64,000 nt of DNA, from NCBI RefSeq assembly GCF_003334315.1, contig NZ_QOWR01000001.1. One strand, 5' to 3'. This DNA comes from Escherichia coli (GTDB taxonomy: Bacteria > Pseudomonadota > Gammaproteobacteria > Enterobacterales > Enterobacteriaceae). A program made the position numbers and the translations under genes. The notes under the pieces were generated by a model. It ran no database searches, was not told where the DNA came from, and saw nothing but the letters and a program-made list of their open reading frames with translations. Shown one piece after another: positions 24,601 through 25,779 of the stretch. The stretch's first letter is position 1, and every line of letters begins with the position of its first letter.

Positions 24601-25779
24601 ATGAGTAATATTGTTTACCTGACAGTAACGGGAGAACAACAAGGAAGCATCTCCGCAGGTTGTGGGACTTCTGAGTCTACAGGTAATCGTTGGCAGAGCG
24701 GGCATGAGGATGAAATATTTACATTCTCACTCTTAAATAATATTAATAATACGGGGCTTGGTTCACAGTTCCATGGTATAACATTTTGTAAATTAATTGA
24801 TAAAAGCACTCCATTATTTATTAATTCCATTAACAATAATGAACAATTATTTATGGGATTTGACTTCTATCGAATAAATAGATTTGGTAGATTGGAAAAG
24901 TATTATTATATACAACTAAGAGGCGCTTTTTTATCGGCTATTCATCACCAGATCATTGAAAACCAACTGGATACAGAAACAATAACTATTAGTTATGAAT
25001 TTATCCTCTGTCAACATCTTATCGCAAATACCGAGTTCAGCTATTTGGCACTCCCTGAAAATTATAACCGTTTGTTTTTACCAAATTCAAAAAACCAAAC
25101 AAATAATCGTTTCAAAACGTTAAACAGCAAAGCTATTGGCAGGCTACTTGCTGCTGGTGGCGTATACAATGGGAACATTGAAGGATTCAGAGATACTGCG
25201 GAAAAACTGGGTGGAGATGCAATAAAAGGCTATGATCAAATACTAAATGAAAAAACAGCGGGCATAGCGATAGCAACAGCATCTATTCTTTTAACAAAGC
25301 GTTATAATGTTGATACATATACAGAAATAAATAGTTACTTAGGCAAACTTAGAGGTCAACAAAAACTTCTTGATGGTATAGACATAATAGAAATAATATA
25401 CATTAAGAGACCTTCAAAAGACTTAGCTAACTTACGAAAGGAGTTTAATAAAACTGTAAGAAAAAATTTTCTTATCAAACTTGCAAAAACCTCCGAAGCA
25501 TCTGGAAGATTCAACGCCGAAGACCTTTTAAGAATGAGAAAGGGCAATGTTCCTCTAAATTATAATGTTCACCATAAACTATCTCTAGATGATGGTGGTA
25601 CTAATGATTTCGAAAATTTAGTATTAATCGAAAACGAACCATATCATAAAGTTTTTACTAACATGCAATCACGAATAGCTAAGGGAATATTAGTAGGTGA
25701 AAGCAAAATCACTCCTTGGGCCATTCCATCTGGCTCAATTTATCCTCCCATGAAAAATATTATGGACCACACAAAATGA
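24601..25779 (+). CDS. yhhZ: Hcp-like (T6SS tube protein family) N-terminal domain fused to a C-terminal HNH/beta-beta-alpha-Me nuclease-type toxin domain (YhhZ)
   Basis: 392-aa ORF in AT-rich DNA; N-terminal ~140 aa resemble Hcp (MSNIVYLTVTGEQQGSISAG...KLIDKSTPLF...ISYEF); C-terminus carries NYNVHHKLSLDDGGTNDFENLVLIENEPYHK (HH...N...N...H), residues 321-350. Confidence 0.8.
   Translation: MSNIVYLTVTGEQQGSISAGCGTSESTGNRWQSGHEDEIFTFSLLNNINNTGLGSQFHGITFCKLIDKSTPLFINSINNNEQLFMGFDFYRINRFGRLEKYYYIQLRGAFLSAIHHQIIENQLDTETITISYEFILCQHLIANTEFSYLALPENYNRLFLPNSKNQTNNRFKTLNSKAIGRLLAAGGVYNGNIEGFRDTAEKLGGDAIKGYDQILNEKTAGIAIATASILLTKRYNVDTYTEINSYLGKLRGQQKLLDGIDIIEIIYIKRPSKDLANLRKEFNKTVRKNFLIKLAKTSEASGRFNAEDLLRMRKGNVPLNYNVHHKLSLDDGGTNDFENLVLIENEPYHKVFTNMQSRIAKGILVGESKITPWAIPSGSIYPPMKNIMDHTK

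Follow-up and report, generated by a model that had tools for sequence, protein, structure and literature searches.

The yhhZ-yrhA locus of Escherichia coli and the predicted HNH nuclease toxin domain of YhhZ

The yhhZ locus and the domain architecture of its product

The window analysed here is a stretch of 64,000 nucleotides of the Escherichia coli chromosome (RefSeq assembly GCF_003334315.1, contig NZ_QOWR01000001.1), across which the gene order is yhhW, yhhX, RyhB, yhhY, yhhZ, yrhA, yrhD, yrhB, ggt. The subject of this report is yhhZ and, near the C-terminus of its product, an HNH motif that is predicted to be the active site of a nuclease toxin. The coding sequence of yhhZ, taken from the list of open reading frames, lies on the plus strand at 24601..25779 and specifies 392 amino acids plus the stop codon; the product is a fusion of Hcp, linker and HNH toxin and is apparently the published effector Hcp-ET1. 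It is followed on the same strand by its cognate immunity gene yrhA (25776..26270), whose product has a SUKH (SMI1/KNR4) fold and is apparently the published ETI1. The start ATG of yrhA and the stop codon of yhhZ overlap (ATGA).

YhhZ belongs to the 'evolved' tube proteins of type VI secretion and is composed of an Hcp domain (residues 1-147), a linker (148 to about 232) and a toxin. The N-terminal Hcp (TssD) tube-protein domain (24601..25041, plus strand) scores 118 bits against NCBIfam TIGR03344 (cut-off 58.9) and matches Pfam T6SS_HCP (E 2.5e-11) as well as the Hcp chains 3he1, 6a2v and 5mxn of the PDB (E 2e-11 to 3e-9). The linker (25042..25296, plus strand) was delimited by alignment with four other Hcp fusions (P0006, P0044, P0084 and P0140), which share many invariant columns with YhhZ up to residue ~229 and diverge completely after ~232; when the fragment of residues 150-392 served as query, these four proteins matched just query residues 1-81/96. 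From its sequence, the segment 148-232 looks like a dedicated pre-toxin or recombination stem. The motif 'GRLLAAGGxYNGNIEGFRxTAExLGGDA' of the linker is nearly invariant among Hcp fusions with entirely different C-termini (P0044, P0084, P0140). The C-terminal toxin module (residues 244-383; 25330..25749, plus strand), defined by homologue search, structural model and fold matches, is a YhhZ-type HNH nuclease domain of His-Me group 32. An evolved Hcp (Hcp-ET) consists of an N-terminal Hcp/TssD fused to a C-terminal toxin, with the immunity gene directly downstream, and both features are present in YhhZ and yrhA.

The HNH motif, its conservation and its predicted fold

The initial annotation had placed an HNH catalytic motif at 25561-25650, and the translation locates it there: residues 321-350 read YNVHHKLSLDDGGTNDFENLVLIENEPYHK. 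The histidine pair was correctly numbered H324/H325; the string quoted with it is 31 residues long and starts at N320, so that it covers 320-350 and not 321-350. All of the elements that had been named are present, namely H324-H325, G332-G333, N335, N339, N345 and H349. A loose pattern for such a site (HH-x5-9-GG-x3-8-N-x7-12-H) has one match when the window is translated in all six frames, at the YhhZ site, against 0.075 per window in composition-preserving shuffles; by itself the pattern is therefore moderately specific, suggestive rather than decisive.

Residues 150-392 of YhhZ, used as query in an exhaustive HMMER search (E<=1e-3, cluster representatives), matched 643 representatives, and the toxin module was found as the C-terminus of otherwise unrelated proteins. 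Conservation was assessed in 139 aligned domains, representatives of clusters at 50% identity. H324, H325, N335 and N339 are present in all of them and H349 in 138; G333, D330, D331, Q356, T353, R279 and F282 are nearly invariant. Searched against the sequences of the PDB, the family profile matched Cas8f-HNH (E 1e-4), pyocin AP41 (E 0.004) and colicin E7 (E 0.02-0.04).

Residues 240-392 were modelled with AlphaFold2 from an alignment of 45 sequences, and secondary structure was assigned by DSSP. The model is confident (predicted local distance difference test score, pLDDT, 94.7; predicted template modelling score, pTM, 0.88). It shows a strand (321-325) ending in H324-H325, a loop containing G332-G333 and N335, a second strand (340-344) straight after N339, and a helix (345-360) bearing H349; an N-terminal three-stranded sheet and a C-terminal strand are added beyond the finger. 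The beta-beta-alpha-metal fold, whose absence the initial annotation had regarded as fatal to the nuclease call, is thus present in the structure prediction. The beta-beta-alpha-metal core spans residues 321-360 (25561..25680, plus strand), as judged from DSSP on the model, Pfam PF01844, and profile alignments to Cas8f-HNH and to the DNase of colicin E9 (ColE9).

A comparison with the colicin E9 DNase, likewise proposed at that stage, was made with hhalign, using a ColE9 DNase sequence identical to 1bxi_B. At an E-value of 2.6e-5 the HH, GG and N residues were matched: H324/H325 to H102/H103, G332-G333 to G110-G111, and N339 to N118. The H324-H325 pair (25570..25575, plus strand) is accordingly assigned, by homology, as predicted metal ligand (H324) and predicted general base (H325). 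N339 (25615..25617, plus strand), just before strand 340-344, corresponds to the structural Asn of the H-N-H motif. H349 (25645..25647, plus strand), the distal His within helix 345-360, aligns with a His of Cas8f-HNH and is the predicted second metal ligand, again by homology. Of the features that mark the His-Me/HNH superfamily (Pfam clan CL0263), YhhZ has the beta-beta-alpha unit, the invariant His that closes strand 1 as predicted general base, the structural Asn before strand 2 and the His in the helix.

In Foldseek, the best solved neighbours of the model are the DNases of pyocins S2/AP41 and colicins E7/E9/E2, with probabilities of 0.97-1.0, about 80 aligned columns, and root-mean-square deviations of 2.5-2.9 A. 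The strongest structural neighbours of the toxin are all HNH nucleases (Cas8-HNH, Rhs2-CT, and the colicin and pyocin DNases). Conservation, fold and structural neighbours lift the motif far above chance, and together they support the earlier claim of a C-terminal nuclease domain carrying an HNH motif.

Carriers, immunity partner and genomic surroundings

The toxin of YhhZ is joined to diverse carriers. In a Pfam scan of 100 relatives, the carriers of YhhZ-type toxins were PT-TG (6), LXG (5), Hcp (4), Tox-PAAR-like (3), DUF4280 (3) and PAAR (2), in addition to RHS, MuF_C and WXG100; an NCBIfam scan of ten long carrier proteins gave LysM-type matches alone. The same toxin on such diverse carriers, and the same Hcp-linker stem with other C-termini, are the signature of polymorphic toxins, and the YhhZ toxin is therefore, as judged from sequence, a polymorphic-toxin module. 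In proteins of about 380 residues (P0001 and its relatives P0007-P0015), the linker and HNH toxin recur at 44-65% identity, with DUF8093 at the N-terminus in place of Hcp.

YrhA has a SUKH immunity fold and is without a Pfam match. The pairing of toxin and immunity gene is kept with a related toxin: in locus L004, the gene for the DUF8093 carrier P0001 (1412-2557) is followed by a gene for a YrhA homologue. The genes downstream of two distant relatives (L003 and L005) are cut by contig ends, and the weak likeness of their products to YrhA (E 0.005 and 0.001) is suggestive and not conclusive. In K-12 MG1655 (L006, 1677-2819), an IS1 element within yrhA leaves 138 codons; yhhZ is intact, and its product is identical to the window protein at 391 of 392 residues. 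The yrhA gene of the window is uninterrupted, unlike that of K-12 MG1655.

Toxin DNA is present at full length and at least 95% identity in 3790 of 5426 complete E. coli genomes (about 70%), always on the chromosome and as a single copy in nearly all. Every record among the matches listed has this DNA under a tssD/yrhA annotation. The yhhZ-locus protein of E. coli 55989 is identical to the YhhZ of the window at 390 of 392 residues (99.5%), and its YrhA at 163 of 164. The window protein differs from the apparent Hcp-ET1 proteins at just one or two residues (Y235 in place of S, A300 in place of T), which leave the motif untouched.

The genes yhhZ, yrhA and yrhD and the start of yrhB lie in an AT-rich islet (24250..26750, not assigned to a strand), defined from the composition profile by a GC content of 28-35% in sharp contrast to about 50% on both flanks. 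Such a low GC content would fit horizontal acquisition. Parts of the islet were found in 4505 of the 5426 complete genomes, and at least 80% of it in 3757. At the distal edge, beside ggt, lies yrhB (26720..27004, plus strand; named after the E. coli genome annotation), an immunity-type gene without an adjacent cognate toxin, whose product matches Pfam Imm35 (PF15567, E 4.6e-23). It may be an orphan immunity cassette, judging from this match; an extra orphan immunity gene downstream is a further trait of polymorphic-toxin loci, and yrhB (Imm35) occupies that position. The small open reading frame yrhD (26356-26520), between yrhA and yrhB, gave no family match.

The RyhB small RNA gene is located at 23661-23725 on the minus strand, between yhhX and yhhY, which is its known E. 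coli locus (Rfam RF00057, 83.1 bits, full length). It was the sole match in an Rfam scan of 23500-27500, in which nothing overlapped the HNH motif. A scan of 24200-27100 for promoters and terminators gave numbers close to the shuffle expectation (14 promoters versus 11.7 +/- 3.1; 2 terminators versus 1.5).

Proposed function, alternatives and comparison with known nucleases

In naming YhhZ an HNH domain fused to Hcp, with DNase activity, the present analysis follows the literature (Blondel 2009, Jablonska 2017, Ma 2017); the toxin domain is also described in genome annotation. Blondel et al. 2009 (PMC2907695) took YhhZ for an 'evolved Hcp' whose C-terminal HNH is 'degenerate', and Jablonska et al. 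2017 (PMC5714182) classified it as a His-Me finger nuclease, in a group of its own (group 32). According to reviews of Ma et al. 2017, Hcp-ET1 of the Shiga-toxin-producing and enteroaggregative E. coli strains STEC004, 55989 and O104:H4 C227-11 kills competitors by its HNH-DNase, is delivered by T6SS2, a type VI secretion system (T6SS), and is neutralised by the downstream ETI1 (PMC6730261, PMC6099711, bioRxiv 2024.03.05.583533). Hcp-ET1/ETI1 and the pair in the window are alike in the N-terminal Hcp, the C-terminal HNH DNase, the immunity gene immediately downstream, and an orphan locus outside the T6SS clusters. In view of the identity with the protein of strain 55989 and the single copy in nearly all genomes with the toxin DNA, Hcp-ET1 is taken to be the orthologue of YhhZ, which, from strain, locus and identity, it almost certainly is. 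The literature on this apparently identical protein is the source from which YhhZ is credited with DNase activity and delivery through T6SS2, and YrhA, as ETI1, with its neutralisation.

A course of action can be proposed for YhhZ in which the roles of the residues are assigned by homology. H325, the general base, would activate the attacking water, a divalent metal held by H324 and H349 would stabilise the scissile phosphate, and N339 and the G332-G333/N335 loop would lock the shape of the hairpin. YhhZ would enter the T6SS tube as an Hcp subunit, be fired into a neighbouring bacterium and degrade its DNA, while the producer would be protected by YrhA, the SUKH-fold immunity protein from the overlapping downstream gene. 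That residues 321-350 are the active-site core of the His-Me finger (HNH, beta-beta-alpha-metal) endonuclease toxin domain of a T6SS-delivered YhhZ is held here at a probability of about 90%, on the motif, its conservation, the fold, the architecture, the modularity, and the fold and toxin linkage of the immunity protein, all from the present analysis.

Several observations weigh against it. Pfam HNH (PF01844) matches YhhZ, over residues 322-343, at E 0.013 for the full-length protein and 0.0036 for the isolated domain, which is below usual significance; among 45 relatives, the model matched 21 at E<=1e-3 and all 45 at E<=0.1. YhhZ departs from the family consensus at several well-conserved sites: S328 replaces a P found in 134 of 139, N320 replaces G, N322 replaces Q and E344 replaces K; none of these is a predicted catalytic residue. 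The 64-kb window holds no T6SS genes, and delivery of this copy cannot be judged from it. For K-12-type strains, the absence of a T6SS has been reported (PMC6730261). Finally, reviews are the source for the activity of Hcp-ET1, and its equation with YhhZ is our deduction.

One variant reading, regarded as doubtful, is that the YhhZ-type toxins of group 32 are a mechanistically distinct HNH clade, or that the gene is retained in E. coli for a role other than T6SS, or both. If so, the metal site would consist of two histidines (H324 and H349), an invariant shell of N335/T353/N354/Q356 would replace the third histidine of colicins, and a beta-sheet subdomain would be added; the near-universal single-copy retention in E. 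coli would then stem from maintenance of the immunity locus, from addiction, or from a T6SS-independent function. The YhhZ toxin and the intact gene persist in T6SS-less K-12 lineages despite the IS1-truncated immunity gene.

A clearly smaller chance is given to the HNH domain being degenerate and inactive, with YhhZ an orphan 'evolved Hcp' unrelated to killing by T6SS, whether a relic, a DNA-binding protein or a structural one, in line with Blondel et al. 2009. The sub-threshold Pfam match, the unusual residues S328, N320 and N322, and the window without T6SS genes all fit an inactive domain, as does the description by Blondel 2009 (PMC2907695), which reported it as 'degenerate' and as not linked to T6SS function; the intact yhhZ beside the IS1-disrupted yrhA of K-12 would also be easiest to tolerate if the toxin were silent or harmless. 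However, the predicted catalytic and metal residues are all intact and are invariant across the family, about 70% of complete E. coli genomes have kept the gene at full length and high identity, the stop codon of the toxin in the window is overlapped by an intact SUKH immunity gene, and reviews report DNase- and T6SS2-dependent killing by the apparently identical Hcp-ET1.

Less probable again is that the domain, though an active His-Me finger toxin, acts physiologically on RNA (rRNA or tRNA) and not on DNA. Some beta-beta-alpha toxins cleave rRNA in vivo (review PMC9990079), and the sequence and fold analysis made here does not distinguish between substrates; the closest structural neighbours, however, are DNases (colicins E7/E9/E2, pyocins S2/AP41, Cas8-HNH, Rhs2-CT). 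That an AT-rich, Asn/Lys-rich protein shows the His/Gly/Asn pattern by chance is hardly credible and was rejected: 0.075 expected occurrences in a 64-kb six-frame translation are not vanishingly rare and the Pfam E-value of 0.013 is weak, but the motif residues are invariant across 139 diverse relatives (H349 in 138), the high-confidence model sets the motif on a beta-beta-alpha unit, and the strongest fold matches are all His-Me nucleases.

With YhhZ read as an HNH nuclease toxin, about 70% of complete E. coli genomes, that of laboratory K-12 included, have a gene for an intact predicted nuclease toxin with an antidote. This is of use for annotation, as RefSeq often labels yhhZ just 'tube protein TssD'. 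The additions made here to earlier work are modest: a confident assignment of the toxin fold with residue-level mapping to ColE9, and a SUKH fold for YrhA.

Among known systems, the DNases of colicins E7/E9/E2 and pyocins S2/AP41 are alike to YhhZ in the beta-beta-alpha-metal core, the HH pair, the GG loop, the structural Asn and the distal His, and the ~80 residues of YhhZ that superpose on them at 2.5-2.9 A include the helix before the finger. These colicins and pyocins are non-specific DNase toxins of bacterial competition that are countered by a small immunity protein, as YhhZ is taken to be. The two differ in several respects. The fourth His of colicins (ColE9 H131, ColE7 H573), four residues after the distal His, is replaced in YhhZ by T353 (T in 132 of 139 relatives), and H349 of YhhZ follows N339 at a distance of 10 residues, versus 9 between Asn and His in colicins. 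The extra N-terminal three-stranded sheet and the C-terminal strand set YhhZ apart from the colicin DNases. The colicin models of Pfam (Col-Pyo_DNase PF21431, Colicin-DNase PF12639) scored YhhZ at E 0.37-1.9, and just 0-3 of 45 relatives reached E<=0.1. The immunity partner YrhA has a SUKH fold, as opposed to the four-helix Im fold of colicin immunity proteins, and proteins of the YhhZ type would be delivered by T6SS, as opposed to the receptor-mediated import of colicins. The likeness to colicin DNases drawn in the initial annotation thus holds for the core, the HH/GG/N alignment and the fold, but membership of the colicin/pyocin DNase family was rejected, since the profiles (PF21431 at E 0.37-1.9), the missing counterpart of ColE9 H131 and the immunity type all differ; the YhhZ domain would work like a colicin DNase without belonging to that family.

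The other two neighbours are more remote in biology. Cas8f-HNH of type I-F systems (PDB 8w1p, 8ydb, 9sjn) acts as a CRISPR effector nuclease under the guidance of Cascade and not as a secreted toxin; it is just about 22% identical to YhhZ and has no related domains beyond the HNH core. Rhs2-CT/RhsI2 of Serratia marcescens (PDB 9t38) has an Rhs/PAAR carrier in place of the Hcp of YhhZ, at an identity of about 21%. Rhs2-CT and the other polymorphic HNH toxins AHH, WHH and Tox-HNH-EHHH are separate His-Me clusters, and YhhZ stands in group 32 of its own (PMC5714182), a clade without a solved structure.
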